Notes: generated from the sequence alone by a model not told the origin. DNA of 64,000 nt from Candidatus Bathyarchaeia archaeon (GCA_049512935.1 JBEKWR010000003.1:111025-175024), one strand, 5' to 3'; positions 9,036 to 64,000 are shown, numbered from the stretch's first letter. Numbers and translations: made by a program.

Positions 9036-9596
9036 ATGACTGAGACAGCTGTGGTAAGTCCTTCAGGCAAAGAACCGATCAAAGCGTCTGAGCTAGACCC
9101 CAAGTTCAAGTACGAACTGCTCAAGATGCATGGAAGCGAAAAAATCCTCAAATGCTTCCAGTGTGGAACATGCACCTCTGACTGTCCCGTAGCAAGGTAC
9201 AGCGACAGTTACCGCCCGAGAACCCTCATCCACATGGCTCAACTCGGCTTGAAAGACCGAGTGCTTAAAAGCGACACTTTATGGCTTTGTGCGGCGTGCT
9301 TCACCTGCACTGACCGTTGCCCCCAAGATGTCGAAGTGGCAAGCGTAATTCGCGTTTTCAGAAACTTAGCCGTCGAAAACGGCTGCATACCCCAAGTCTT
9401 CAAAGATCAAACCGCAAGCCTGCTTGAATCAGGCTACGCCTACAAGATTCCCGATTTAAGAATAAAAAAACGCGAATCCCAAGGGCTTCCGCCCCTGCCG
9501 AAAGGCAACTGCGAAAACGTCAAGAAGGCGCTTAAAGGCGTGAAATTTATAGAATCCGTCCAGAAACCCGCAGGAGGACAGCCCAATGGGCAATAA
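9036..9596 (+). CDS. hdrC: Heterodisulfide reductase subunit C
   Basis: Two CxxCxxCxxxCP 4Fe-4S motifs, LWLC; overlaps hdrB start. Confidence 0.9.
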   Translation: MTETAVVSPSGKEPIKASELDPKFKYELLKMHGSEKILKCFQCGTCTSDCPVARYSDSYRPRTLIHMAQLGLKDRVLKSDTLWLCAACFTCTDRCPQDVEVASVIRVFRNLAVENGCIPQVFKDQTASLLESGYAYKIPDLRIKKRESQGLPPLPKGNCENVKKALKGVKFIESVQKPAGGQPNGQ

Positions 9597-10479
9597 GTTC
9601 CTGCTTTTCCTCGGCTGCGCCATCCCTTACCGCGTTTCAGCCTACGAGATTTCCGCTCGGAAAGTTCTGGCTAAGCTCGGCGTTGAGCTGGTTGAGATGC
9701 CTGAGTTCAACTGCTGCGGTTTACCTTTCGACCCAGTCAGTCATGAAACCATGCTTGTTTTGGCGGCGAAAAACTTGGCGCTGGCGGAACGGGAAGGACT
9801 CAACATTCTCACGCTTTGCCCAGGCTGCGCTGGCTCACTCAAGAAAACTAACAAGATCCTCAAAGAAGACAAAGCTCTGAAAGAGGAAATTAACAGTCAC
9901 CTGAGAGAGGTCGGGTTGGAGTTCAAAGGAACCGTTGAGGCAAAGCATCTTTTGCAGTTTCTGAAGGAAGATGTCGGCGTGGAAAAAATCAAGGCGTCCG
10001 TCACCAGACCGCTCAGCATGCTTAAGGTTGCTGAACACAACGGCTGCCACATTCTGAGGCCTAAAGAGTACATCGGCTTTGACGACCCAGAGGACCCGCA
10101 GACACTAAAAATGCTTATCGAAGCAACTGGAGCAACCTGCCTCGACTACATCGACGAAACCGAATGCTGCGGAGCCCCAAGCGTAGGAGTCAGCGACAAA
10201 ATCGCCCTGCAGCTCGCAAGAGACAAGCTTAACCACGTTAAAATGGTTGAAGCGCAAGCGCTAATCACAATCTGCCCATTCTGCCACATAATGTACGACA
10301 CAAACGAGCTAAGAATAGAGAAAACGTTTAATGAAACCTATGGCATTCCCATACTCCACTACCCACAATTACTCGGCTTAGCAATGGGGTTAACCCCTGA
10401 AGAGTTAGCCTTCGGCGAACTCCGAGTAAACGCATCAAAAATAATAAAGCAAGTAACCGAGTGTGTGAACAAACCATGA
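9586..10479 (+). CDS. hdrB: Heterodisulfide reductase subunit B
   Basis: Two CCG domains (FLGC, NCCG, CPGC; HNGCH, ECCG, CPFCH), HYPQLLGLAMG. Confidence 0.93.
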   Translation: MGNKFLLFLGCAIPYRVSAYEISARKVLAKLGVELVEMPEFNCCGLPFDPVSHETMLVLAAKNLALAEREGLNILTLCPGCAGSLKKTNKILKEDKALKEEINSHLREVGLEFKGTVEAKHLLQFLKEDVGVEKIKASVTRPLSMLKVAEHNGCHILRPKEYIGFDDPEDPQTLKMLIEATGATCLDYIDETECCGAPSVGVSDKIALQLARDKLNHVKMVEAQALITICPFCHIMYDTNELRIEKTFNETYGIPILHYPQLLGLAMGLTPEELAFGELRVNASKIIKQVTECVNKP

Positions 10480-11465
10480 GCAAAAGCAAGTTAAAAATAG
10501 CCTTTTACTGGGCTGCAAGCTGCGGCGGCTGCGAGATAGCCGTCTTAGACATAAACGAGAAAATCCTTGACGTAGTGCAAATAGCCGACGTGGTTTTCTG
10601 GCCAGTAGCCTTAGACATCAAGTACAAAGATGTTGAGGAGATGGCTGACAAGTACATTGACATAACATTCTTTAACGGTTCAATACGCAACAGCGAACAG
10701 GAACATATGGCTAAGCTGCTGAGGCAAAAATCCAAAACCTTGGTCGCCTTCGGCTCATGCGCCCACCAAGGAAGCGTACCTGGACTGGCAAACCTCAACG
10801 ACAAACAAGAGATCTTCGACCAAGTCTACATAAAAGATTTGTCAAACGTGAACCCGCAGGCGGTTGAGCCTCAGACTGTAACCCACGTTAAAGAAGGCAC
10901 ACTTAAAATCCCAGAGTTCTACGACACAGTAAAAACTTTGGCGCAGACAGTCGACGTAGACTATTACCTGCCAGGCTGCCCACCGCCGGTTAAACTGATC
11001 GCGGGCGCAATAGACGCCATAGCAAGCGGCACACTGCCGCCCAAAGGCTCAGTGCTCGCGCCCCTCAAAGCCGTGTGTGACGAGTGCCCAAGAAAACGAG
11101 AAAACAAGAAAATCGGCAAAATCTACCGCGTCTACGAGAAAACCCCAGAGCCAGAAAAGTGCCTGCTTGAACAAGGCATCCTCTGCATGGGACTTGCAAC
11201 CAGAAGCGGCTGCGGCGCCCAATGCTTAAACGTTGACATGCCCTGCACAGGCTGCGGCGGACCAGCCCCGAACGTGCCCGACCAGGGAGCGGCGATGATT
11301 TCCGCTTTGGCTTCGATTCTCGGTTACGACGGTGAACCGGGCAAAACCACGTACACCGAAAAAGAGGTTGAGGAACTGCTGAGCCAGGTGAAGGACACTG
11401 TTGGCACCTTCTACATGTACAGTTTACCAGCATCTATCCTGAAACGAAAGGTGATTAAAAAATGA
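10476..11465 (+). CDS. mvhG: F420-non-reducing hydrogenase small subunit
   Basis: ASCGGC, FGSCA, PGCPP, CLLEQG..CMG...CGAQC..PCTGC; ATGA overlap with hdrB. Confidence 0.9.
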   Translation: MSKSKLKIAFYWAASCGGCEIAVLDINEKILDVVQIADVVFWPVALDIKYKDVEEMADKYIDITFFNGSIRNSEQEHMAKLLRQKSKTLVAFGSCAHQGSVPGLANLNDKQEIFDQVYIKDLSNVNPQAVEPQTVTHVKEGTLKIPEFYDTVKTLAQTVDVDYYLPGCPPPVKLIAGAIDAIASGTLPPKGSVLAPLKAVCDECPRKRENKKIGKIYRVYEKTPEPEKCLLEQGILCMGLATRSGCGAQCLNVDMPCTGCGGPAPNVPDQGAAMISALASILGYDGEPGKTTYTEKEVEELLSQVKDTVGTFYMYSLPASILKRKVIKK

Positions 11466-12916
11466 AAGAAATAGTAATAGACCCGATCACGCGTCTTGAA
11501 GGACACGGAAACGTATCCATATTCCTAAACGACCAGGGCGAAGTAGAAAACGCCTACCTCAAAGTTCCTGAGCTGCGAGGATTCGAGAAGTTCTGCATCG
11601 GCAGAAAAGCCGAGCTTATGCCGCAGTTAACCACGAGAATCTGCGGTGTCTGCCCAGTGGCGCACCACTTCGCGGCAACAAAAGCCTTAGACGCGGCATT
11701 CAACGTTGAACCGCCCTCAGCTGCAAAGAAGCTTCGGGAGCTAATGTACAGCGCCTACTACATCTACGACCACACACTGCACTTCTACTACCTCGGCGGA
11801 CCAGACTTCATAGTTGGACCAGACGCGCCGCCGGAAAAACGCAACATCCTAGGCGTCATCGAAAAAGTCGGGATGCCAGTTGCGAAAGAAGTCATAAAGC
11901 ATCGGGCTTACGGGCAAAAAATGACCGAAATCATCGGCGGAAAAGCAACCCACCCCGTCTGCGGATTGCCAGGCGGAATCAGCAAGCCTCTTAGTGAAGA
12001 GAACAGGCAAGAAATTGAGAAAATGGCGACCTCATGCGTTAGCTTCGCCCAGTTTACCCTTGATATTTTCCACAAAATCGTTTTAGGCAACACCAAGTAC
12101 GTTGACCTGATCTTGAGCCAAGCCTACACCATGCCAACCTACTACATGGGCACAGTTGACGAGAACAACAAGGTCAACTTCTACGACGGCAAAATCCGCG
12201 TGGTCGACCCATCAGGCAAAGAATTCGTCAAGTTCGAAGCAAAAGACTACCTAAACCACATCGGCGAACACGTCGAGGAATGGACGTACAGCAAGTTCCC
12301 GTACCTCAAAGCCGTCGGCTGGAAAGGACAAGTTCCAGGCAAAGACAGCGGCATCTACCGTGTCGGTCCACTGGCGCGACTGAACGCTTCAGACGGAATG
12401 GCAACACCGTTGGCGCAGGCAGAATACGAGGTCATGTACAAGACACTTGGCGGCAAACCGGTCCACAGCACCTTGGCTTTCCATTGGGCACGCTTAATCG
12501 AGCTGCTCTACGCTACGGAAAGAACGATGGAGCTTGTTAAGGACCCAGAAATCACCAGCACAAACGTCCGCAACAAGCCAGGAGAACCAGGCGAAGGCGT
12601 GGGCATAACCGAGGCGGCACGCGGCACACTCATTCACCACTACGTCCTCGACAAGGACGCTCTCGTCAAAGACGTAAACCTCATCGTCGCCACAACCAAC
12701 AACTACCCAGCAATCTGCATGAGCATACGCGACGCAGCTAAAGGCTTAATCCACGGCGGCAAAGTCGACCAAGGCATACTTAACATGGTTGAGATGGCTT
12801 TCAGAGCCTACGACCCGTGCTTCGGATGCGCAACACACAACGCAATCGGGCAAATGCCACTGACCGTTGAAGTCTACAACGCCGACAAAAAGCTAATCAG
12901 CTCAGTAAGCCGATAA
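11462..12916 (+). CDS. mvhA: F420-non-reducing [NiFe]-hydrogenase large subunit (group 3c)
   Basis: IDPITRLEGH, RGFEKF, RICGVC (L1), RAYDPCFGCATH (L2). Confidence 0.93.
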   Translation: MKEIVIDPITRLEGHGNVSIFLNDQGEVENAYLKVPELRGFEKFCIGRKAELMPQLTTRICGVCPVAHHFAATKALDAAFNVEPPSAAKKLRELMYSAYYIYDHTLHFYYLGGPDFIVGPDAPPEKRNILGVIEKVGMPVAKEVIKHRAYGQKMTEIIGGKATHPVCGLPGGISKPLSEENRQEIEKMATSCVSFAQFTLDIFHKIVLGNTKYVDLILSQAYTMPTYYMGTVDENNKVNFYDGKIRVVDPSGKEFVKFEAKDYLNHIGEHVEEWTYSKFPYLKAVGWKGQVPGKDSGIYRVGPLARLNASDGMATPLAQAEYEVMYKTLGGKPVHSTLAFHWARLIELLYATERTMELVKDPEITSTNVRNKPGEPGEGVGITEAARGTLIHHYVLDKDALVKDVNLIVATTNNYPAICMSIRDAAKGLIHGGKVDQGILNMVEMAFRAYDPCFGCATHNAIGQMPLTVEVYNADKKLISSVSR

Positions 12917-16974: not shown

Positions 16975-18069
16975 ATGGAGAACAGCATCAAGCAAGTGAT
17001 AGAAAAGTATGATCCCAAGCAGGTTCGCATCGGCGTTTTGGGATCCCACTCGGCGCTTGAAATTGCTTCAGGCGCGAAGCAAGAAGGCTTCGAAACCGTG
17101 GTCGTTTGCCAGAGGGGAAGAGACAAGACCTACACGAAGTACTACCGAAACATCTTCGACCACGTCATCATGCTTGACAAGTTCTCAGAAATAACCAGCG
17201 CGGCATCCGTGAAAGCTCTCACCGACTTGAACACGGTTTTTGTTCCCAACCGCTCATTCTCAGTGTACGCGGGCTACGAGGCTATAGAAAACCAGTTCGC
17301 CGTACCCCTAATGGGTAACCGCTCGATGCTGCGAACTGAAGAGCGCAACACCCCCCGAAACCAGCTCTACCTGCTACAGAAGGCAGGGATAGCGACGCCG
17401 AAAACCTTCAAGGGGCCAAGCGAAATCGACCGCCTCACAATTGTAAAAGTGCCTGAAAAGCAGCGGGCAATCGAAAGAGCCTTCTTCTACGCCTCTTCCC
17501 CAGAAGAGTACGAGAAAACAGCGCAGAAACGCATAAAACAGGGTATCATCACCGTGGAAGCGCTGAAAAACTCGGTAATAGAAGAATACGTTATCGGCGC
17601 CAAATTCAACGCTAACCTTTTCTGGTCGCCCTTAACCGACGAAATCGACCTACTAGGCTTTGACAGGCGAATTCAAACGGACCTTGACGGCGTCTTGGAC
17701 TTGCCAGCACAGGAGCAACTGGAACTGAACGTTCCCACCCAGAACATCGAGATCGGGCACATGGGCGCAACCATGCGGGAAAGCCAGATCGAGAAGGTTT
17801 TCGAGGCGGCGGAAAAATTCGTTGGCACCTGCAAGAAAGAGTACCCGCCGGGCATGGTCGGCTTGTTCGCGTTGCAGGGTGCGGTAACGAAGGATTTGGA
17901 GTTCTATGTTTTCGACGTTAGCCCGCGGGTTCCAGGCTGCCCATGCGTCGAGCCTACTTCGCCTTACATGAAGTACAAGTACGGCATGGAAGTTGGCCCG
18001 GGCAGGCGCGTGGCGACGGAAGTTAAGCGCGCGGTTAAGGAAGGCAGACTTGCGGAAGTGGTAACGTGA
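16975..18069 (+). CDS. purP: PurP-family ATP-grasp ligase (DUF1246/DUF1297), paralogue 1
   Basis: IGVLGSHSALE, VPNRSF, IEEY, FALQG, DVSPRVPG. Confidence 0.85.
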   Translation: MENSIKQVIEKYDPKQVRIGVLGSHSALEIASGAKQEGFETVVVCQRGRDKTYTKYYRNIFDHVIMLDKFSEITSAASVKALTDLNTVFVPNRSFSVYAGYEAIENQFAVPLMGNRSMLRTEERNTPRNQLYLLQKAGIATPKTFKGPSEIDRLTIVKVPEKQRAIERAFFYASSPEEYEKTAQKRIKQGIITVEALKNSVIEEYVIGAKFNANLFWSPLTDEIDLLGFDRRIQTDLDGVLDLPAQEQLELNVPTQNIEIGHMGATMRESQIEKVFEAAEKFVGTCKKEYPPGMVGLFALQGAVTKDLEFYVFDVSPRVPGCPCVEPTSPYMKYKYGMEVGPGRRVATEVKRAVKEGRLAEVVT

Positions 18070-19151
18070 TAACCAGCGCCGACATCGCCAAAATCCTCGA
18101 CAAGTACGATCAGAAAAAGCTGGCCATAGGCACGTTGGGTTCTCATAGTTCACTTAACATTTTCAAGGGCGCCAAAGAGGAAGGGTTCCGCACGGTTTGC
18201 GTATGCAAAGAAAAAGACGCGATAATGTACAAGAAGTACCCGCTCGTTGACGACTTAATCATCGTGAAAGACTTCACGGAACTCTTAAGCGAGCAAATAC
18301 AGGAGAAACTCCGCGGGCTGAACGTCATTTTGATTCCCCACGGCTCCTTCACCGCCTACCTCAGCACCGAAGAATTAACCAGCAGCCTCATGGTGCCCAT
18401 GTTCGGCAACCGCCAGCTCCTCCACTGGGAAGCCAACCGCAAATCCCAGGAAGAGTGGCTGCGGCAGGCAGGGCTGCGTTTGCCAGCCACGTTCAAAACG
18501 CCCGAGGACATCGACCGCTTAGTCATCGCCAAGCTGCCAGGCGCCAAAGGCGGAAGAGGATACTTTTTGGCGAATTCGCCTAAAGCCTTCCACAAGAAAT
18601 TCAGCGAACTCGTGAAGCGCGGCTTGCTCAGAGAAGATGATTTAGCCGCTATTCACTTGCAGGAGTACGCGTTGGGCGTTAACGTTTACCCCAGCTACTT
18701 CAGCTCCATCCTAAACGACGAGGTTGAACTGCTAGCCATGGACAGGCGTTACGAGTCAGCGGTGGACTCCATCGGCAAAATCCCCGCGAGCGAACAGCTG
18801 GAGATTGACATTAACCCAACCTACACCATCGTGGGCAACTTCCCAATCGTGCTCCGCGAATCGCTGCTGCCCGAAATCATGCGCATGGGCGACAACGTGC
18901 ACAAAAAAGCCAAAGAGCTGGCGCCGCCAGGAATCATCGGACCCTTCTGCCTAGAAACTGTGATAACCGACGACCTCAAAATCTTCACGTTCGAAATCTC
19001 CGCGCGCATCGTTGCGGGAACCAACGTCGGCATCGGCACTTCACCCTACGCTTACCTGAAGTACGGCGAGAACATGTACATGGGAAGACGCATCGCCAAG
19101 GAAATAAAGGAAGCAAGAGAAACTAAAAGACTACTGGAGATTCTAGCATAA
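18066..19151 (+). CDS. purP: Formate-dependent AICAR formyltransferase PurP, paralogue 2
   Basis: GSHSSL, IPHGSF, GAKGGRGYF, DRRYES, GPFCLE, FEISARIVAGTN. Confidence 0.9.
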   Translation: MITSADIAKILDKYDQKKLAIGTLGSHSSLNIFKGAKEEGFRTVCVCKEKDAIMYKKYPLVDDLIIVKDFTELLSEQIQEKLRGLNVILIPHGSFTAYLSTEELTSSLMVPMFGNRQLLHWEANRKSQEEWLRQAGLRLPATFKTPEDIDRLVIAKLPGAKGGRGYFLANSPKAFHKKFSELVKRGLLREDDLAAIHLQEYALGVNVYPSYFSSILNDEVELLAMDRRYESAVDSIGKIPASEQLEIDINPTYTIVGNFPIVLRESLLPEIMRMGDNVHKKAKELAPPGIIGPFCLETVITDDLKIFTFEISARIVAGTNVGIGTSPYAYLKYGENMYMGRRIAKEIKEARETKRLLEILA

Positions 19152-30200: not shown

Positions 30201-31697
30201 ATGGGTGCACGTTCACGAAACAAACAAAGAAGGCAGGAAACGCTCTCTAGCGAGACGAAAATAATCGTTATCGGCTTAGTGGTCGCCATAATCGGGTCAG
30301 TGATAGCGAGCTCCTACCAGAAGGCGACGCTTACAAACTACGCTGGCTTCGGCATGCTGCTCGCCGGAATATCCGTTCTCATCTTCGGCACGTGCGCCAC
30401 GGCTTGCGCAACGGTTAACGACCGCTTCGCCCAGTTTCCCGCGAAAAAAGCGGGCAAACCAAGAATGCTGGCTCTGAGCATATGGACTATCGGAATCGGC
30501 TTAATCCTCAGCATCATCGGCTCCATACTGAGCAGCAACTACGCCAAAAACTCATTCATGAATGTCGACGGATTCAGGATGCTTTTGGTTGGCATATGTT
30601 TTTTCGTTCTCGGAATATTCGGGACGCTTTTAGGCACTTTGCAGGCTAACTTGAACAGGAACAGGCGCCAAGCAGGTTTGCGGGGTGCCTGCCCAAGGTC
30701 TCTGTCCTCCAGCATACTGTCCATCGGCGTCGGGCTGGCCCTGATTATCGTGGGCTCAATTGTGGCTGGTTCCGCCGCGAAGGAAACAATCACGAACTAC
30801 ACGGGTTTTGGAATGCTGTTGGTAGGCATAGCCACCTTGACTCTGGGAATGTCAGGAACCGCCGTGACAATCGTCAAAAGCATCTTGGACTTGAACAAAG
30901 AGGATAGCGATGAAGGCAGGCCTGTGCTGGGCAGCATCTGGGCAATCGGCATAGGCGTAATGCTCCTTATCATCGGCTCCTTGATTGCTGGCTCCTACGC
31001 CAAAACAACCACGATGAACTACTCGGGCTTCGGCCTGATGCTGTCAGGTACAGGTATCTTCGTGTACGGACTTTTCGAAACCGCGCGTTTCTCAGCCATG
31101 GGCTACCTGAGCGGCAGATGGGCTGGAAACCGCGAAAAAAGCGACAGCGAACCCAGAGCCAGAAACTTCTGGGGAAACATTGTGAAATCAACCGCCGTGC
31201 TCAACCTTGCAGGGGTGATGGTTGCTATGGGACTGCTTTTCTTCAGCCTCTGGCAACTTGACCTTATCGTGAGTGGACCAGTATGGTGGCAGTCGCCGAC
31301 GAATCCTTACGGCGCAGGATGGAGTTGGCCTGGGCCTGGTGCCTACGCGAAAGACCGCTTCCAATGCTTCCTGTGGGTAACCACCGTCGGACAGGCATAC
31401 GATACCCTGTTCATGCTGATCTTCATCTCATTCATAATCCTGTTTGCAAGCGCATTCTTCTGGCCGCGCTCAAGAGGAAACCTCGATTTGGCTCCTAAAC
31501 CCAAGTCCCGCAGCACAACAAGAAATCCCAAGACCACGGCGCGAAGAAGCAACGCACAGAAAAGTCAGCCCACAGCCACTGAATCCACGGACGCTCCTCC
31601 AGAAAAACCTGCCGAATCGCCTGTTGTTTCCCAAGAGGAAACGCCGCAATCTCCTGTCTATGCTCAAGAAGACGATGGCGCCTTGGGTGGGACTTGA
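30201..31697 (+). CDS. Polytopic membrane protein built from repeated TM hairpins
   Basis: Four repeats of IIGSxxAxSYAKxxxxNYxGFGMLLxG; low-complexity tail; stop codon lies in a tRNA-derived fragment. Confidence 0.8.
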   Translation: MGARSRNKQRRQETLSSETKIIVIGLVVAIIGSVIASSYQKATLTNYAGFGMLLAGISVLIFGTCATACATVNDRFAQFPAKKAGKPRMLALSIWTIGIGLILSIIGSILSSNYAKNSFMNVDGFRMLLVGICFFVLGIFGTLLGTLQANLNRNRRQAGLRGACPRSLSSSILSIGVGLALIIVGSIVAGSAAKETITNYTGFGMLLVGIATLTLGMSGTAVTIVKSILDLNKEDSDEGRPVLGSIWAIGIGVMLLIIGSLIAGSYAKTTTMNYSGFGLMLSGTGIFVYGLFETARFSAMGYLSGRWAGNREKSDSEPRARNFWGNIVKSTAVLNLAGVMVAMGLLFFSLWQLDLIVSGPVWWQSPTNPYGAGWSWPGPGAYAKDRFQCFLWVTTVGQAYDTLFMLIFISFIILFASAFFWPRSRGNLDLAPKPKSRSTTRNPKTTARRSNAQKSQPTATESTDAPPEKPAESPVVSQEETPQSPVYAQEDDGALGGT

Positions 31698-31700
31698 ACC
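31676..31700 (-). repeat. Degenerate tRNA 3'-end fragment (att-like), most distal
   Basis: Minus strand GGTTCAAGTCCCACCCAAGGCGCCA: T-arm plus acceptor-like strand and CCA; core ggtgggacttgaacc at 31686. Confidence 0.65.
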
Positions 31701-31787
31701 TATAAAAGCCATCGGCTCGCAGACAGGTTTTTTACTACGAAATTGTAGTAATTCCTTATTAGTGGGAAATGCTAATAAATACTGAGA

Positions 31788-32048
31788 ATGAGACAGATGG
31801 CTTCAGTAACGGTCACAAGGCATTCACAAGTCACAATACCCAAAGAAATACGTGAAGAAGTGGGCATAACGGAAGGAGATAAGCTGAAAATGAGCGTAGT
31901 GGAAGGCAACAAGATAGTGATTGAAAAAGCTAACCCAGACGCGTGGAAAGATTGCACAGACTTTTTGCCTGAGGACTTCGAAAAAGTGCTAGCATCTCTA
32001 CGCTCCGACTCAACCAACAGATTCAAGCGCCTAGGGCTGGTTCCCTGA
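31788..32048 (+). CDS. vapB: AbrB/MazE/SpoVT-type antitoxin
   Basis: VTRHSQVTIPKEIREEVGITEGDKL. Confidence 0.88.
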   Translation: MRQMASVTVTRHSQVTIPKEIREEVGITEGDKLKMSVVEGNKIVIEKANPDAWKDCTDFLPEDFEKVLASLRSDSTNRFKRLGLVP

Positions 32049-32049
32049 A

Positions 32050-32514
32050 TTGCCAGAAAAAAAGAAAGCGGCTGCAAAAGAACTGAAAACTGTATTCGTT
32101 GACACCTCGATAATTGTGGATGTCGACAGGGGAAAAGAGGACGTAATAGAGCTTTGTAAAACATTAACGAGCACCAATAGCGCTTTTATAAGCACCGTAA
32201 GCGTTTCCGAAATATTGACTGGGGCATATCTGAGAAAAGACTACAAGGCCGCCGTAAAGAAAGCGGAAAAGGTGCTTGGTCAATTTCGCTGGGTCACATT
32301 AAACGGTGAGGCAGCAAAGCTTGTTGCTGAACTGAATGCGTATCTGCTCTCAAAAGGGCAACCGATAGAGTACCAAGATGTGGCAATTGCCGCTTCCTTT
32401 CTTCTGGAGTGCTGCGATGTGATGCTGACCGAAAATAAAGACCATTTTGAGAGGCTTCCTAACCTGAAAGGCAAAGTAATGACTCCCAAAGAGTTTCGCC
32501 AAGAATTCTATTAA
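32050..32514 (+). CDS. vapC: VapC PIN-domain toxin
   Basis: VFVDTSII, ISTVSVSEI, DVAIAA, LTENKDHF. Confidence 0.88.
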   Translation: MPEKKKAAAKELKTVFVDTSIIVDVDRGKEDVIELCKTLTSTNSAFISTVSVSEILTGAYLRKDYKAAVKKAEKVLGQFRWVTLNGEAAKLVAELNAYLLSKGQPIEYQDVAIAASFLLECCDVMLTENKDHFERLPNLKGKVMTPKEFRQEFY

Positions 32515-32581
32515 TGGTAACCTCCTTTTTTGTTGCTTTAACTCAAAAATTAGTAACTTTGATTTTACTAAGGTTACTCAG

Positions 32582-32605
32582 TAGCGCCCAGGTGGGACTT
32601 GAACC
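32582..32605 (-). repeat. Degenerate tRNA 3'-end fragment (att-like)
   Basis: tagcgcccaGGTGGGACTTGAACC; core at 32591. Confidence 0.65.
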
Positions 32606-32998
32606 TAAAATCGGCAGAAATATCAGCCACATTTCCCTTTTTTAATCTAAAGTGAATGTTAGAACAGTTTCCTAAACAAAGTCAAGTCTTTTCTCTTCAA
32701 ACCGACAAATGAATATAAATCCCTGAAAACGGAATAGCTAAGATATTAGCCACCCAGATTTTTATTAACAACCCGTTGAATGCTTTTTACCGTTGCTTCC
32801 ATTCCTTTTTTCCTTTGTTTTTTGTCTGTCCTTTTACGTCGCTTTTCGGTTTGTTTTTAGTTTTGTTTTTTATTTTGAACCCTCCTTACTCATCATTCAA
32901 CTATTCAATTGTCCTCCACGCTTATTCGGTTTGCCTCTCTCGAACTATAAATAGTGCACATTGTAAATTTTAAAACCGCCAAAGGACCCTAATTCTAT

Positions 32999-33103
32999 CT
33001 AGCCTATTTTAATTGCAATCGGCTTCTCGTTTTCTTCAACTTGTTTTTCCATCGCTTTTCTTGAAATGGTCATATCTGCTTGATCAAAGACTACAACAAT
33101 CAT
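32999..33103 (-). pseudogene. Possible truncated PIN-toxin remnant
   Basis: MIVVVFDQ... directly after the AbrB gene resembles a PIN beta-1 start; stops after 34 aa. Confidence 0.3.
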
Positions 33104-33117
33104 TGCAATTTCAAGCC

Positions 33118-33417
33118 CTATTTCTTTTTAGCCCTTGCCGCTTTCTCTTTTCTGTATTTTTGTATTTCCTCTTCTATGTCATCTTGGGTTAACTCGCCGT
33201 ATTTTGCGATTCTTTCATCAACTCGCCTGTATATGGCTTCAAGCTCTTTTGACAAGTCTGGTTCTTCAAATTTTTTCAGTATTACGGAATTGTTGTACTC
33301 GTAAACGAGAAATTTTGTTTTCGGTTTCAAGCCCATTCTTGACCTTATTTTTGCAGGTATGACAACTTGGCCTTTTTCGCTGAGAATCGTGAGTTCGGCT
33401 TTTTCATTCTGACCCAT
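33118..33417 (-). CDS. AbrB/MazE-type antitoxin
   Basis: LSEKGQVVIPAKIRSRMGLKP; tail DIEEEIQKYR. Confidence 0.85.
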   Translation of the reverse strand: MGQNEKAELTILSEKGQVVIPAKIRSRMGLKPKTKFLVYEYNNSVILKKFEEPDLSKELEAIYRRVDERIAKYGELTQDDIEEEIQKYRKEKAARAKKK

Positions 33418-33563
33418 TTGCAGCCACCGAATGTTATCTTACTTTCTTACCTAAAGAACATATCTCCTCTGCAAATCATCAACACTCTGACCATCAATAA
33501 TGTGCACTAAATTCCGATTTATGGAAAGTATTGGCCGTTTGAAAAAAATAACCTCGTATTTAG

Positions 33564-33636
33564 TGGTGCCGGGGGTGGGACTTGAACCCACGAAGGCCTG
33601 CGCCAGAGGATCTTAAGTCCTCCTCCATATCTTAGG
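33564..33636 (-). repeat. 73-bp duplicate of the tRNA-Leu 3' portion (attR-like)
   Basis: 71/73 identical to 34416..34488, including anticodon arm, CCA and 10 nt of the intron. Confidence 0.95.
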
Positions 33637-33639
33637 CAC

Positions 33640-34062
33640 TCACTGAGTCTGATTTTTTTGGCGATTTTGAGCAATCTCGTCAAGCGTTAGGGTTTTGATA
33701 TTTGGGGCAATCTTCTTTGTCAGACGCAGATCCTCAGTTACCAAAATCGACGCTTTCGACTTGGCAAAATAAGTATAGGACGCATCGTAGAAAGTAATTC
33801 CAAATTGCCCTGAAGTTTCCAAGATTTCTTCTTCCTTGGGAACTATCTGATGGATTTCCATTGCGTTTAGAGCGTGTTTGATTGCGTTCATTAGCGATCG
33901 GGCTTCCTCTTTGGAGATTTTTGCTTGCAACAAGTAGTCTTTCCAGACTATGTTTCCGAGTTCATATCTTGCGATTTCTAACGTGCCGTTTCCTGTTAGA
34001 AGGTCAATATTGTTTTCCTTAATGGCCCTGATAATCGCTGAGGAATCAAAGAGATACCTCAT
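33640..34062 (-). CDS. vapC: VapC PIN-domain toxin
   Basis: YLFDSSAI, YELGN, ITFYDASY, LVTEDLRL. Confidence 0.9.
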   Translation of the reverse strand: MRYLFDSSAIIRAIKENNIDLLTGNGTLEIARYELGNIVWKDYLLQAKISKEEARSLMNAIKHALNAMEIHQIVPKEEEILETSGQFGITFYDASYTYFAKSKASILVTEDLRLTKKIAPNIKTLTLDEIAQNRQKNQTQ

Positions 34063-34292
34063 CGGCTTTCCCGATCTTCCCTTATGCTTCTTACTATTTC
34101 TTCCATGCTGACTTTGTCGAGTATCGGCTTTAGCTTGGTTATTTCTTCTTTTAGCTCTTCGATTTCCTTTCTCTTAACCTCATCCTCTATTGCTTTTCGT
34201 AGAAGCTTGGACGGCTTGATTTTGAGCTTTATCATCTTCTCTTTGAGTGGCTTGGGAATTTTCGTTGATACCGTTACGCATTCACTGGTCAA
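34059..34292 (-). CDS. vapB: VapB-type (RHH-like) antitoxin
   Basis: VTVSTKIP...LLRKAIEDE...IRSIREDRESR; ATGA overlap with the toxin. Confidence 0.85.
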   Translation of the reverse strand: MTSECVTVSTKIPKPLKEKMIKLKIKPSKLLRKAIEDEVKRKEIEELKEEITKLKPILDKVSMEEIVRSIREDRESR

Positions 34293-34415
34293 TTTCTCAC
34301 CGAGAAGTAGTAATAAAAAGTAGTAGAAAAGGTTTGCTTAAACTGTTTTACCAAAATGGCGACCCACAACGCAAGCGACAAACTGCACAGAAGGTCGTTT
34401 TTATGTTGGCGTTTT

Positions 34416-34536
34416 TGGTGGCGGGGGTGGGACTTGAACCCACGAAGGCCTGCGCCAGAGGATCTTAAGTCCTCCTCCCTATCTTAGGTGAAGTTTTTTC
34501 TGGCCACCTATTTAGACCTGGCTCGGATACCCCGCC
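34416..34536 (-). tRNA. tRNA-Leu(UAA) with a 33-nt D-loop intron and encoded CCA
   Basis: Acceptor GGCGGGG/CCCCGCC-A-CCA; anticodon arm GAGGA-CTTAAGA-TCCTC; long variable arm; T-arm GTGGG-TTCAAGT-CCCAC; intron 34479..34511 in a BHB (helix GTCT/AGAT, bulges AAA and AGG). Confidence 0.93.
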
Positions 34537-34919
34537 ACCAGCACCGATACTTCACGGCGCGGTATTGTTTAAGTTTTATGCATAAGGCACCTTGGACCCA
34601 GAGCTGGCTGTTTCTTTGCACTGGCAGTGAACAAGTTGCACGGTTTTTTGCGTCGTGCATAAAGATAAGGCGGATTCTTCGATGGATTTGGACCCACAAC
34701 TTGCTGGTAACATCGCCAATTCTTCCTGCGCAGCCGCTTTCTCTTTTTTTTAAATAATTTACGGCATTCCGCATCAGCCCATTACCCTTAAACCCTCGTC
34801 ATACATCAAAACCTCGACCCGTTGCTGAATTGAAGAATATGGTCAATAACATAATCATACCAAACTTTTCTTGAGTCTGCAAATGGCATTGAAAAAAATA
34901 AAAAAAGGCGAGGTGGTGT

Positions 34920-45705: not shown

Positions 45706-46758
45706 TTAGGTTAGTTCATGGCTTTTAGATGCTTTTTGTTTAACTACCTTAACCAAGATAAACGAGCACGTAGCAATCGCCAAGGTCAGCAACAGAATGG
45801 ACGAAGTTAATTCAGGGACTTTTGGAGTTGATGTTGGACTTGTTGAACTTGATTTTGATGTTGGAGCCGGTGTAGCTGTTGATTTTGAACTTGAAGTTGT
45901 TGTTGGACTTGGGGAACTTGATTTTGATGTTGATGTTGGAGTAGATGTTGAACTTGATGTTGGAGTTGGAGTTGACGTAGTTGTCGAAATTGGTGATACG
46001 ATGGTGTTAGACTGTAAAGTAACTGCACTTTGTGCCAATGCCAAACCATTCAACGTTGCACCAGTAGTTAGTGCAATCGCTGTTTTGTCAAGAATAATTC
46101 CACTAAAGGCCGAGTGTGTTCCAAGTGTCGTTTGTCCAGCGACCACCCAGAAGATGTTACTTGCCTGTGCGCCACCACTCAAAATAATTTGTACGTTAGA
46201 ACTGACAGTGAGAGTTCCTGCTATCTGGAATACCCATTCAGCACTTGAACTTCCTGAGAGAGTGACAGCTGATGGTATTATCACATTGGTACCCCACTTG
46301 TAAATGCCAGCAGTTATTGTTAATCCACCGATGTTTCCTGCACCTAATGCATTGACGGGAGCAGGAGTGGTTAGTCCAGCCACAGTAGTATATGCCGTTT
46401 GCATATCGCTTATAGCCGTAGTCATCATAGTTGGAGTAGGTGCTGCATAGTTAGATGCGTATACCTTTCCAGTCACCAGAGAGGATGTCGAAAATGTATT
46501 CGAGGAATCCATTATCAACCCGAAGCCTGTTATGTATGAAGCAGCAGCTGGGCTTACTCCAATATTTCCAGTTATTGAAGTAGTTCCAGTGGTTGAGATT
46601 CCTGTTTTTGCTAAAATAGCAAAATTTCCTGCTGTACCAAGAACGTTAGCTGGTAACGTGTTTGCTGATACATTAGAGATCTGTATGATACCTAATAATG
46701 CTATGAAACAGAAGAAAGTGAAAAATACGCTTAATTGAGTCCTAGTCTTTTTCTTCAT
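45706..46758 (-). CDS. Ice-binding-like protein (DUF3494) with S/T linker and PEF-like C-terminal anchor
   Basis: LGTAGNFAILAKTGIS, ITGNIGVSP, AISDMQTAY, GIYKW, WVFQI, NIFWVV, LAQSAVTL; VPEL + TM + KQK. Confidence 0.9.
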   Translation of the reverse strand: MKKKTRTQLSVFFTFFCFIALLGIIQISNVSANTLPANVLGTAGNFAILAKTGISTTGTTSITGNIGVSPAAASYITGFGLIMDSSNTFSTSSLVTGKVYASNYAAPTPTMMTTAISDMQTAYTTVAGLTTPAPVNALGAGNIGGLTITAGIYKWGTNVIIPSAVTLSGSSSAEWVFQIAGTLTVSSNVQIILSGGAQASNIFWVVAGQTTLGTHSAFSGIILDKTAIALTTGATLNGLALAQSAVTLQSNTIVSPISTTTSTPTPTSSSTSTPTSTSKSSSPSPTTTSSSKSTATPAPTSKSSSTSPTSTPKVPELTSSILLLTLAIATCSFILVKVVKQKASKSHELT

Positions 46759-56977: not shown

Positions 56978-57928
56978 TTATCGTTTTAGTGTCTTGCGCG
57001 CTTTCATCTTCACAATGCCAAATGCAGCGAAACTGACTCCTATAGCCATTAATGCGCCTAAAGCACTTTCAGGCAACGGGAAAGGAGGGTTCATTTGGCC
57101 GGTGGTGTTATTGATAGTGCTACCGTTTAATGTAACCGCGCCGTTGAGTGCAAACGCTCTGCCATCCACCGTAGCAGTAGTGCCTACCCCGATCGATGAG
57201 TAAGCCAGAATGGTTCCCACGAAAGTAGAGCCTGATCCAAGAGTCGCTGAACTGCCAACTTGCCAAATTACGTTGCAGGGCTGGGTATCGCCGATGTAAC
57301 TTATTACGCTACTCGATGCAGTGATAAGCGTGCTCGCGCATTGGAAGACGAAAACAGCATTGGGGTTGCCCTCACCATTGAGAGTGAGAGTCCCTGTCAG
57401 CGGATTCGCAGACGTGAAGACGTAGACGCCGGGCGTCAGAGTTAGACCACTGAGGTCGGAGTAGGTCGCCGAAGATGGCAGATTGGAAGCTTCCGTATAA
57501 GCATTTGAAATATCGCCTGCAACTGTAGTCAACAGGGTGGGAGTAGATCCCCCATTTCCTGTATAATCAGCCGCAAATACCTGTCCAGTAACAAGAGAGG
57601 ATGTTGAAAATGTGTCTGTAGCATCCACTGTTAGCGGCGAAAAATCTCCCGTGATGGCCGTCGAAGTATAGCCCGTGCTTATCCCTACATCACCGACAAC
57701 CGTCATGGGTCCAGCGTTACTGATCCCAGAGTAGGCAAAAACCGCGAAAGGTTGAGCGCTTCCAAGATTTACGGAACTTGCAGTTATAGATGAAGTTGGA
57801 GCAGCTTTGACTGCGATTATACCTGTTGCAAGAAGCAGAAGACCTAAAACAAAAATTGTTCCAACGATTTTTTTATTCAGAATTATCTTATTCAAATTTA
57901 TAACCCTTCCTTTGATAATATTACCCAT
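56978..57928 (-). CDS. Ice-binding-like protein (DUF3494) with PEF-like anchor
   Basis: [56 protein letters not shown]; LPES + TM + KARK. Confidence 0.9.
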   Translation of the reverse strand: MGNIIKGRVINLNKIILNKKIVGTIFVLGLLLLATGIIAVKAAPTSSITASSVNLGSAQPFAVFAYSGISNAGPMTVVGDVGISTGYTSTAITGDFSPLTVDATDTFSTSSLVTGQVFAADYTGNGGSTPTLLTTVAGDISNAYTEASNLPSSATYSDLSGLTLTPGVYVFTSANPLTGTLTLNGEGNPNAVFVFQCASTLITASSSVISYIGDTQPCNVIWQVGSSATLGSGSTFVGTILAYSSIGVGTTATVDGRAFALNGAVTLNGSTINNTTGQMNPPFPLPESALGALMAIGVSFAAFGIVKMKARKTLKR

Positions 57929-59734: not shown

Positions 59735-61493
59735 ATGAGAAAGCAAACTACTTTTAAAAGAATAACTTGGGATAAAAAAAGCGTTAGCGCGATTATTGTT
59801 TTAGGTATTCTGCTTTTGGCAACATGTACAATCGCGTTCAAAGTTGAACTAATTTCAGCTGTAAGTCCAACGCCTGTACTTCTTGGAACGGCTTCTTATT
59901 TCTCTATTTTGGCCGGCTCCGGGATCACCAACACAGGTACGACCACAATTACTGCAGACGCGGGCACCTATCCCACTACCTCAGAGACAGGATTTAATAC
60001 TGTAACTTTTGTGGATGGAACTAACCACGCAGGCGATGCTGTCACACAGGGAGCCAAAGGTGACTTGTTAACTGCGTATAATGACGCCGCTGGACAAACA
60101 CCTATTACCGTGCCAACTGAACTCGGCGATACAACCCTGACGCCTGGCGTCTACAACTCCACATCTGGTACGTTTGATATAACCGGAACTCTCACCCTCA
60201 ATGGTGAAGGCAACCCCAATTCTATTTTCATCTTCCAGACAGCATCCACACTCATCACTGCAGCGGGTAGCGTCTCTACACCAGCTAGCGTTGTGAGCCT
60301 CATCAACGATACCCAGGCCTGCAACGTCTTTTGGGTAGTTGGCAGTTCAGCAACTATTGGTACATACTCTGTTTTCGCGGGAAACATTCTGGCTTATACA
60401 TCGATTACGGTGACTACTGGCGCTACGGTGAATGGCAGAGTGTTGGCACGCAATGGCGCGGTTACATTAGACAATGACACCATCTACACGGCAGATTATG
60501 ATAACATAGTTTTAGCTCCTGCATCTGCCACAAATCCCGTTGGCACCAACCATACCGTTACCGCAACGGTGGCTGGCACAGGAAATCCGCAGCCTGGTTT
60601 GAATATCACTTTTAATGTTGTTTCAGGTCCTAATACGGGAGCAACGGGTTCCAACATAACTGACAGCAAAGGGCAAGCATCATTCACCTATACGTCGAAC
60701 GGTTCACCAGGCACCGACCATATTACGGCAAGCTTCTTAAACGAGCAAAATGCGACAGTGACTTCAAACACAGTTACGAAAACCTGGACAACTCCGTCTC
60801 CAACTCCAACTCCAACACCTACACCAACTCCTTCGCCTTCGCCAACTCCAACGCCGACACCGACCCCAACGGCCACTCCAACTCCCACCCCAACTATAAC
60901 TCCTACACCAACGCCTACTGCAACACCTAAGCCTACTTGCACACCCAAACCGACATGTACGCCAAAACCTACGCCAACGCCCACTTGTACGCCAAAACCT
61001 ACCTGCACACCAAAGCCAACTTGCGCGCCAACTCCCACTTGCACACCTAAGCCTACTTGCACACCCAAACCGACATGTACGCCAAAACCTACGCCAACGC
61101 CCACTTGTACGCCAAAACCTACCTGCACACCAAAGCCAACTTGCGCACCAACCCCCACTCCCTCTCCCTGTTCAACCCAAGAAAAAGTACGAACCGACAT
61201 AATGAACTACATAAAAACATACCATTGTGAAATGGCACAGTATATGCAGGCTCTCTCTTGGACCGGCGGGTTAGTCAACACAGGCACGGTGGGAACAGCA
61301 ACCTACAAGTACCTAAGCAAACGGCTGGACAGTAATGATGACCTACCACATGGTTAATAACCCAGTGTACTCGGTGACCGTAACGTACGATAGGCAGGCT
61401 TCGTGTTTCACCCTTGAAAAAGTCATTGTGTATTGGCAGGGCACTTGGCAAAGCGGAGCAATCAGACAAACAACCTACAGATACACGCCGTAG
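59735..61493 (+). CDS. DUF3494 ice-binding-like + Ig-like (Big_1) + PT/CTPKPT repeat protein, with a probable single-base frameshift near 61320
   Basis: DUF3494 motifs; HTVTATV...[11 protein letters not shown]; uninterrupted ORF ends 61357; removing one A from agcAAAcggc extends it as NGWTVMMTY...WQGTWQ...YTP* to 61493. Confidence 0.8.
60790..61170 (+). repeat. Intragenic PT / CTPKPT tandem repeats with a 120-bp duplication
   Basis: 60923..61026 identical to 61043..61146. Confidence 0.9.
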
Positions 61494-63655: not shown

Positions 63656-64000
63656 ACTCCGGTTGATCCTGCCGGACCCCACTGCTATCGGGATAGGACT
63701 AAGACATGCTAGTCGAGTGCCTCAGCCAAAACGAGGCACGGCGCACAGCTCAGTAACACGTGGCTAACCTGCCCTTGGGATAGGAATACTCCCGGGAAAC
63801 TGGGGCTAATTCTCAATAGGCGAAGAACTCTGGAATGAGTCTTTACTTAAAAGACGCTGAGGTTATGCTCTTCGGTGTCGCCCAAGGATGGGGCCGCGAC
63901 CGATCAGGTTGTTGGTGAGGTAATGGCTCACCAAGCCTTTTACCGGTGCGGGCCGTGGGAGCGGGAGCCCGGAGATGGGCACTGAGACAAGGGCCCAGGC
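63656..64000 (+). rRNA. rrs: 16S rRNA, 5' part (truncated by the window edge)
   Basis: ACTCCGGTTGATCCTGCCGGA start; GCTCAGTAACACGTGG; GGGAAACTGGG; ACTGAGACAAGGGCCCAGG. Confidence 0.97.

Follow-up and report, generated by a model that had tools for sequence, protein, structure and literature searches.

Chromosomal integrons collect small cassettes at an anchored site, where the newest cassette stands nearest to the anchor, the content varies and toxin-antitoxin cassettes stabilise the array. In archaea, tandem integration at one locus and the degeneration of captured elements are established, according to the available portions of three reports (PMC8371274, PMC3119797, PMC3718332). The cis-mobilisable elements (CIMEs) of streptococci, which have no integrase, are bounded by attachment (att) sites and stand in tandem at tRNA genes, are described in the accessible text of PMC5704250 as decayed integrative and conjugative elements (ICEs) or integrative and mobilisable elements (IMEs). 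Among the cryptic integrated elements of Thaumarchaeota, the smallest one reported in the accessible text of PMC6563490 measures 2.6 kb and carries its own integrase. Here, we describe a tandem array located in a stretch of 64,000 nucleotides from Candidatus Bathyarchaeia archaeon (GCA_049512935.1, JBEKWR010000003.1:111025-175024); this whole stretch is referred to as the window, and its archaeal nature is indicated by the 5' end of an archaeal small subunit (SSU) rRNA at 63656-64000. On balance, the region 31676-34536 probably represents an integration hot spot on the tRNA-Leu(UAA) gene of Bathyarchaeia, in which small non-autonomous units were inserted successively at the att site.

The array is delimited by the 15-mer GGTGGGACTTGAACC, which is found on the plus strand at positions 31686, 32591, 33574 and 34426, with core spacings of 905, 983 and 852 bp. 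A preliminary description of this DNA had reported these positions and spacings, and they were recovered both by pattern matching and by a repeat finder. The four matches compare with 0.09 expected, at least four matches were obtained in 0 of 100 shuffles, and a chance origin is thus excluded. The components of the array are, in window coordinates:

30201-31697, plus strand: host flank, gene of a 498-amino-acid (aa) membrane protein whose tail reads into att copy 3 (open reading frame (ORF), homologs)
31676-31716, plus strand: att copy 3, outermost and decayed, with the exact core at 31686-31700 (15-mer match, in-register test)
31701-32590, plus strand: cassette 3 (family C), abrB and PIN-domain vapC with a palindrome-bearing upstream region (Pfam, VapC models)
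32581-32605, plus strand: att copy 2, exact core at 32591-32605 and decayed acceptor part (15-mer match, alignment to the relative L075)
33564-33636, plus strand: att copy 1, displaced 3' part of the tRNA from the CCA to the 3' end of the intron, 73 nt (97% identity)
33637-34415, minus strand: cassette 1 (family A), vapB and PIN-domain vapC with a 123-nt upstream region (ORFs, NCBIfam, PDB match)
34416-34536, minus strand: tRNA-Leu(UAA) with encoded CCA, anchor (attB) of the array (ARAGORN after in-silico removal of the insertion)

The tRNA-Leu(UAA) gene contains a non-canonical insertion (intron) of about 31-36 nt in the interval between the D-loop and the anticodon stem. Because of this insertion it is hidden from both ARAGORN and Rfam: no tRNA was detected in the 64-kb window by ARAGORN, with or without its intron option, nor by Rfam at the gathering score. 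The intron option misses the gene because the insertion sits outside the anticodon loop. With candidate insertions excised in silico, a tRNA-Leu(TAA) is called by ARAGORN at cut points covering a wide range, the splice sites being approximate, and it is solely after this removal that a cloverleaf with the anticodon UAA and a long variable arm is obtained. A partial Rfam match belonging to the tmRNA/tRNA clan covers 34416-34536, and an Rfam scan of 31500-34800 by E-value revealed nothing beyond the tRNA and its copy. The gene, previously presented as an intact tRNA-Leu at 34426, is thus recognised as tRNA-Leu(UAA), with the refinement that it carries a non-canonical intron.

The locus was compared with its counterparts in relatives by scanning a genome collection with a degenerate pattern of the tRNA T-arm and anticodon arm, which detected at least 119 tRNA-Leu stretches. 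The 119 listed tiles are 8-kb blocks (designated by L numbers) from 111 assemblies; the label is Bathyarchaeia or Bathyarchaeota for nearly all, and 3 tiles belong to metagenome-assembled genomes (MAGs) labelled otherwise. The contig of the window is not among them, and all tile counts hold for the matches listed. The tRNA-Leu(UAA) gene is kept in these 119 tiles. The tiles cut the downstream side at random, and at least 1 kb is present downstream of the tRNA copy in 93 of the 119.

The copy nearest to the tRNA is the least decayed in the window, in agreement with the earlier proposal that the newest unit lies next to the tRNA. The segments 33564-33636 and 34416-34488 form a 73-nt repeat with 97% identity and 2 mismatches, so that the proximal copy is long and nearly identical to the tRNA, as had been noted. 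This copy spans the CCA and the anticodon arm and extends into the 3' end of the intron, and its variants in the acceptor and at the intron edge correspond to the form common in relatives. The live tRNA displays the acceptor pair G2-C71 while the displaced copy has G71 (34420-34426 versus 33568-33574), as in relatives with C2-G71; both pair types are present among the live tRNAs of relatives. This difference would be due either to a crossover at the extreme 3' end or to an integration that altered the stem and was compensated later.

The flanks of the two distal copies were tested in register with the tRNA, a gapped alignment test having been set aside for its free end gaps. In copy 3, the match amounts to 7 of 10 positions towards the acceptor (p 0.003) and to 9 of 16 towards the variable arm (p 0.008). 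For copy 2, L075 offers a full counterpart, which closes the family C unit on the right; with a single gap, the left side of copy 2 can be aligned to the acceptor part of this counterpart. These two observations indicate that the distal copies are decayed longer copies rather than bare 15-mers, contrary to the length of only about 15-25 bp first attributed to them. Both had also been described as sharing a flank foreign to the tRNA: this flank is best read as decayed variable-arm sequence in copy 3, while for copy 2 the in-register test of the flanks gave no match with the tRNA.

Beyond the outermost copy, the left flank consists of a GT87-like gene followed by the gene of the 498-aa membrane protein, and this arrangement is conserved in several tiles; homologs of the membrane protein are present in L070, L072, L038, L047 and L026. 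The syntenic tile L072 represents an empty site, in which the stop codon of the membrane-protein gene is followed by 22 nt and by the 3' end of the tRNA, with no cassettes. The position of att copy 3 corresponds to this tRNA end of L072 and to the outermost copy of L070. Att copy 3 marks the former 3' end of the tRNA, and the comparison supports that the array occupies the precise position expected from integration at the 3' end of the tRNA. In the window (31400-31697), the membrane protein is prolonged by a low-complexity tail of about 70 aa that enters the outermost att copy, with the stop codon within the copy. The same tail enters the outermost copy in L070 (5866-6117, turned to the orientation of the window), and in L072 (5350-5580, turned likewise) the protein ends shortly past an FFWPR motif.

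Additional copies of the 3' part of the tRNA, located downstream of the gene and in the same orientation, were detected in at least 20 of the 119 tiles by short-word BLAST with the tRNA region. The copy counts are a minimum because 8-kb tiles often lose the downstream side. Together with the window, 21 of 120 sources contain at least two copies, which delimit 33 intervals of 96-3494 bp. Toxin-antitoxin markers are found in 19 of these 33 copy-bounded intervals (625-1942 bp, median 932). The other cargo comprises transporters with regulators (2 intervals), a XamI restriction-modification system (1), a TIR protein with a universal stress protein (1) and a glyoxalase (1). No intact integrase is included in any of the 33 intervals and integrase fragments are included in two; at E<1e-6, none of the 19 toxin-antitoxin intervals contains an integrase fragment. 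The toxin-antitoxin families, named A to F, occur in 19 of the 119 tiles and always downstream of the tRNA. The copies are divided into two length classes, of about 24-31 nt and of at least 60 nt. The number and kind of units thus vary among relatives and one of them has an empty site, so that the locus behaves as the preliminary description had anticipated: its gene content is not fixed and the shared 15-mers are not chance matches.

Particular cases were observed among these intervals. In L068 (5592-7440), the copy-bounded interval encodes a TIR-domain protein, of the TIR family of CAP12/Pycsar effectors, and the universal stress protein, and in L114 (3698-6622) it contains a complete XamI-type restriction-modification pair. 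In L032 (1013-1700), a HicA unit is inserted between two tRNA-Leu 3' copies on a contig separate from the live tRNA-Leu, which is found in another tile of the same assembly (L017) with a type B integrase (described below) adjoining. Copy-bounded units may therefore also exist away from the tRNA.

The genes of cassettes 1 and 3 of the window are as follows:

31788-32048, plus strand: antitoxin of the AbrB/MazE type, cassette 3 (Pfam 2e-13)
32050-32514, plus strand: PIN protein (vapC), cassette 3 (Pfam 5e-9; VapC models)
33640-34062, minus strand: PIN protein (vapC), 140 aa, cassette 1 (PDB PAE2754, E 3.9e-11; Pfam PIN at E 0.024 only)
34059-34292, minus strand: VapB-like protein, 77 aa, cassette 1 (NCBIfam VapB_Sulfo, E 4e-9, under the curated cutoff with a full-length alignment)

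From these domain matches, both cassettes have the type II layout of the VapBC kind, with the gene of a small DNA-binding antitoxin followed by that of a PIN toxin in one operon. In cassette 1, vapB and vapC overlap by 4 nt and the stop codon of vapC is located 3 nt from att copy 1. Cassette 3 lies on the plus strand and cassettes 1 and 2 on the minus strand, each with its own upstream sequence of 90-125 nt. A single toxin-antitoxin unit per interval had been proposed; this holds for intervals 1 and 3, whereas interval 2 is a mosaic without toxin gene (see below). No recombinase domain was detected in the 73 scanned ORFs of the window, and a tblastn search of the window with the integrases of relatives matched only translated tRNA copies, with no fragment at E<10. 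The reported lack of an integrase in the window is therefore confirmed. A plasmid collection gave no match to cassette 1 with its att, and in a phage collection the att was matched and nothing else.

The likeness of the locus to a cassette array with repeated boundaries had led to the term integron-like, and this likeness is superficial. Neither IntI nor attC was found, the boundaries are direct repeats derived from the tRNA and the cassettes are in mixed orientation; a true integron was ruled out on the absence of a recombinase domain in the 73 ORFs and on these direct tRNA repeats. The same architecture is repeated in assemblies that are independent of each other, some of them at chromosome level (L018, for example), which argues against an assembly artefact. 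Taken together, an origin of the array as a true integron, by chance or by artefact has hardly any credibility. The serial insertion and the anchoring at the tRNA that had been proposed with the integron analogy are retained, as they are sustained by the empty site, the variable relatives, the recurring cassettes and the integrases present at the site; the integron machinery is not.

All three cassettes of the window are found again in relatives, in other combinations. Family C (cassette 3) is present in L023, L062, L075, L101 and L102 with 73-87% identity over about 775 nt; it adjoins the tRNA in L023 and L102, and takes the second place in L075 and the third in L101. Family A (cassette 1) is represented in L101 by a unit with 84% identity, between copies and directly after family C, and the stop codon of vapC abuts an att copy in both family A members. 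Homologs of the family B AbrB protein were found in L030, L036, L016 and L074; in L030 and L036 an intact PIN_3 toxin gene comes after the AbrB gene, and copies bound the two on either side. A fourth AbrB-PIN family, family D, is present in seven assemblies. In the 15 pairs formed by six genomes its identity is always comprised between 93.2 and 95.8%. The flank upstream of the tRNA, visible in five of these assemblies, shows no homology in 7 of 10 pairs, and in the other 3 its identity is 85-92%. The left neighbour of family D differs from one genome to another (host gene, glyoxalase unit, AsnC-like unit or integrase pseudogene). Within a family, the units resemble one another in length and in their ends from genome to genome: 844-934 bp for family D (with copies on both sides), 906-993 bp for family C and 838-973 bp for family B.

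The composition of the arrays differs even where the genomes are close. The GT87 gene is 95% identical in L048 and L070, whose arrays differ by several units. L075 shares the succession from D to C with the L023/L097 contig and has an extra unit of the major facilitator superfamily (MFS) adjoining the tRNA, which fits an insertion at the tRNA end. As judged from these alignments, the arrays change fast. Differences by whole units between close relatives, such as L048 and L070, are also what repeat-mediated deletion would produce, and homologous recombination without integrase has been considered as the main driver. The tRNA repeats of 60-90 nt would then serve as homology arms, with which the general recombination system of the host loops out units, re-inserts them, exchanges them with incoming DNA and deletes them, integrases being needed for the first insertions alone. 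The units are indeed flanked by long and nearly identical direct repeats, and module exchange between tandem integrated archaeal elements is discussed in the accessible part of PMC8371274. Such recombination leaves unexplained the origin of the tRNA-like site of the units as well as the two length classes of copies, and the decay of the distal copies of the window has by now gone too far for them to sustain it. We regard it as an improbable main driver.

Sequences related to integrases were detected by tblastn beside tRNA-Leu in 34 of the 119 listed tiles. They belong to two families of tyrosine integrases, referred to as types A and B, which we take to be those named SSV-type and pNOB8-type. 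The type A integrase (about 310 aa; Pfam Phage_integrase, E 1.5e-14) is intact in L005, L059, L078 and L091. The ORF of this integrase has its opening within the tRNA 3' part and follows the sense of the tRNA, and its decay leaves 5' fragments (L002, L036, L101 and L104). At the far end of the decayed element of L101, a short ORF with a start codon enters the displaced copy in the same frame, a pattern suggesting an SSV-type integrase gene split by integration. The short class of copies bounds both intervals that contain type A remnants, the left copies being of 24 and 31 nt (L002 and L101, respectively). The type B integrase (415-453 aa) has an N-terminal zinc ribbon and reads towards the tRNA; its stop codon is located 51-236 nt before the tRNA, past a conserved motif. 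It is near full-length in 9 tiles, and in 11 tiles a C-terminal fragment alone remains beside the tRNA or a copy.

Four further observations concern these integrases. When compared with the PDB, the truncated integrase of L101 gave a spurious match to chalcone isomerase and a weak one to the HP1 integrase, both rejected; its family was settled by full-length homologs. An SSV-type captured element was also rejected for the window, as no N- or C-terminal fragments of an integrase border the units, whereas such fragments are present in L101, L104, L002 and L036. In L059 (1030-1227), the 3' part of the tRNA occurs twice, 96 nt apart, beside a type A integrase that is intact; one of the two copies extends fully to the CCA, whereas the other is shortened by its last 28 nt, and we consider this 96-nt interval as an oddity. 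Finally, the att shows 83% identity over 63 nt with part of an integrase gene annotated as SSV-type in Aeropyrum pernix ovoid virus 1, which constitutes a precedent for a tRNA-Leu-like site within an archaeal integrase gene.

The main rival to successive insertion of small units is the decay of larger elements. Each interval would be left over from a larger plasmid or provirus bearing an integrase, from which deletions spared the att copies along with the toxin-antitoxin pair, whose loss kills or arrests the cell and which is therefore retained. Pieces of both integrase types persist at the locus, as the type A pieces of four tiles and the type B pieces of 11, including the 1-kb glyoxalase unit of L048. 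A hairpin resembling the right-end motif of type B is found in some toxin-antitoxin units (L016, L062 and L102). In Sulfolobales, remnants at tRNA genes are the rule according to the available text of PMC3718332 and PMC3119797. In the opposite direction, the decay of both integrase types leaves fragments and the 19 toxin-antitoxin intervals keep none, which would speak against simple decay. Moreover, none of the 47 ORFs located beside intact integrases (10 tiles) has a toxin-antitoxin domain. The near-constant lengths and ends of the units of families B, C and D across genomes, the vapC stop codons abutting the att copy in family A and the differing left neighbours of family D likewise speak against decay in place. 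On this evidence, we find it rather unlikely that the intervals are decay remnants.

Decay has nevertheless acted on the array, as shown by interval 2 (32606-33563), which possesses an AbrB-type gene and no toxin gene. Its features are:

32632-32939, no strand assigned: segment X, conserved non-coding stretch (identity to relatives)
32998-33103, minus strand: fusion ORF of 34 codons, deletion scar (translation, comparison with relatives)
33118-33417, minus strand: antitoxin-type gene of cassette 2, AbrB/SpoVT family, 99 aa, family B (Pfam MazE_antitoxin 5e-7; TIGR01439)

A possible toxin stub had been suspected after the AbrB gene. The fusion ORF does begin like the PIN_3 toxin of family B, for a few codons after which the similarity breaks off; this was recognised by comparison with the intact family B units of L030 and L036, since a tblastn search of 32560-33140 with the toxin-antitoxin proteins of the window gave no significant toxin remnant (best E 0.29). 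The remainder, 33001-33076 (76 nt), is 91-93% identical to sequences of L021, L070, L075 and L097, where it forms the 3' end of a helix-turn-helix (HTH) gene of 117/119 aa that is part of other units. A tblastn fragment match of the 119-aa protein (HTH119) also falls in interval 2. Segment X is 73-82% identical in L024, L054, L077, L107 and L099, where it is located near tRNA-Leu and downstream of a gene of 93 aa that is AsnC-like. No conserved ORF and no Rfam match were found in segment X, which may be a small RNA or the tail of a gene. From the toxin start, the HTH end and segment X, interval 2 is a mosaic in which a deletion took the toxin gene and most of the neighbouring unit, joining cassette 2 to the remnant of the latter. 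The array formerly comprised at least five units. The loss of the cassette 2 toxin gene by deletion into the adjacent unit is in line with the decay of larger elements.

The successive insertion of small units, which we prefer, can be formulated as follows. Small units with a tRNA-like attachment site would recombine one after the other with the 3' part of the tRNA. Each insertion would keep a working tRNA and displace outward, as a copy, the earlier tRNA end with everything located behind it, giving the order host gene, copy 3, cassette 3, copy 2, interval 2, copy 1, cassette 1 and tRNA. The recombinase would be a tyrosine integrase acting in trans from elsewhere, or supplied by an element in tandem. 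As the cargo consists for the most part of toxin-antitoxin pairs, which stabilise themselves and possess their own regulatory regions, the units would be hard to lose. Older copies and units would decay by point mutation and by deletions that remove the toxin gene and not the antitoxin gene. Between cells, the units would most likely travel in tandem with a plasmid or a virus using the same site. We infer from the comparisons above the entry as units of about 0.9 kb rather than whittling in place, and likewise the integrase that acted and the route between cells.

Several points weigh against this scheme. Mobilisation in trans, or the capture of circles of about 0.9 kb, is a proposal, the analysis of this genome covering 64 kb. 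Given the deletion in interval 2 and the integrase remnants of relatives, whittling to about 1 kb is possible. In some arrays, the identity of the copies shows no regular decrease with distance, and the right-end motif of type B was sought in the window cassettes and found to be absent. The integrase-bearing elements extend past the tiles and toxin-antitoxin genes could sit at their distal ends, beyond the tile ends, as the decay of larger elements would have it. The flanks upstream of the tRNA may be variable in themselves, which weakens the comparison of flanks in family D. Finally, L048 and L070 are as alike in family D (94.9%) as in the host gene (95.0%), so that part of the sharing is vertical; this equality also favours decay remnants.

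A bolder reading is advanced tentatively and with less confidence than the successive insertion itself. Bathyarchaeia may have assembled an integron-like capture system from other parts, with tRNA-Leu(UAA) as docking site. The sub-kilobase cassettes would have no recombinase, and each would carry an attachment site derived from the tRNA and one addiction or defence module (VapBC, HicA, HEPN-MNT, restriction-modification or TIR). Tyrosine integrases borrowed from plasmids or viruses with this tRNA as their target would insert the cassettes, excise them and shuffle them. The pool of cassettes would be shared between species, and the cassettes would be the smallest site-specific integrative elements known.

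If the units do move as units, no smaller site-specific integrative elements would have been described. It would follow that an ordinary tRNA attachment site, combined with a borrowed integrase, can give rise to an integron-like capture of cassettes, and that toxin-antitoxin and defence genes have a concrete route by which to spread through an abundant class of uncultured archaea. The array makes it testable whether chromosomal toxin-antitoxin pairs are selfish hitch-hikers or stabilisers of variable regions. Even if the intervals are decay remnants, the locus would be a clean natural case of addiction modules outlasting their carrier elements, and it would show that an intron-bearing tRNA gene can serve as an integration hot spot.

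Outside the array, the window encodes three ice-binding-like proteins (45706-46758, 56978-57928 and 59735-61357), a hydrogenase cluster with heterodisulfide-reductase-like subunits (9036-12916) and two adjacent PurP-type paralogs (16975-19151).

In a literature search bearing on texts outside supplementary files, no integrase-less toxin-antitoxin units of less than 1 kb bounded by tRNA-derived repeats were described, and nothing was found on integrated elements or arrays at tRNA-Leu in Bathyarchaeia. CIMEs usually measure several kb or more. The Bathyarchaeia units differ from them by their size of 0.6-1 kb, by a content reduced mostly to one toxin-antitoxin operon, by the absence of any trace of a former integrase, by the presence of the same unit in several species and by their archaeal host, for which we know of no conjugative partner. 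As with CIMEs, the comparison of genomes points to flanking direct tRNA repeats with the intact gene at one end, to an empty site and to integrases using the site in the lineage. In the accessible text of PMC5704250, CIMEs and accretion arrays are, like the array of the window, composed of att-bounded units without integrase or transfer genes, in tandem at the 3' end of a tRNA, and newcomers join at the end where the gene is rebuilt.

The integrated elements of archaea (SSV-type and pNOB8-type) share with this locus the duplication of the 3' part of the tRNA as att and the possibility of successive integrations, according to the available portions of PMC3119797, PMC3718332 and PMC8371274. As in SSV-type enzymes, the type A integrase ORF of relatives runs through the att. 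The units of the window are far smaller than the archaeal remnants, which hold several genes as far as the available portions of these reports describe them, and no integrase fragments flank them. The target is moreover an intron-bearing tRNA, part of whose intron is included in the long att copies. The idea that introns protect archaeal tRNA genes is quoted in the accessible text of PMC3119797, and the use of an intron-bearing tRNA gene as an integration hot spot contrasts with it. The Thaumarchaeota elements, from a related phylum, are also small and located at tRNA genes, and tandem arrays with tyrosine recombinases are noted among them; the units described here are about one third of the size of the smallest one and have no integrase (PMC6563490, in its accessible text).

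With chromosomal integrons, the array has in common the logic of capture. It differs by the absence of IntI, attI and attC, by boundaries made of direct tRNA repeats, and by cassettes that possess their own upstream regions and are found in both orientations. The array is best read as a variant form of tandem integration at a tRNA site, and not as an integron.

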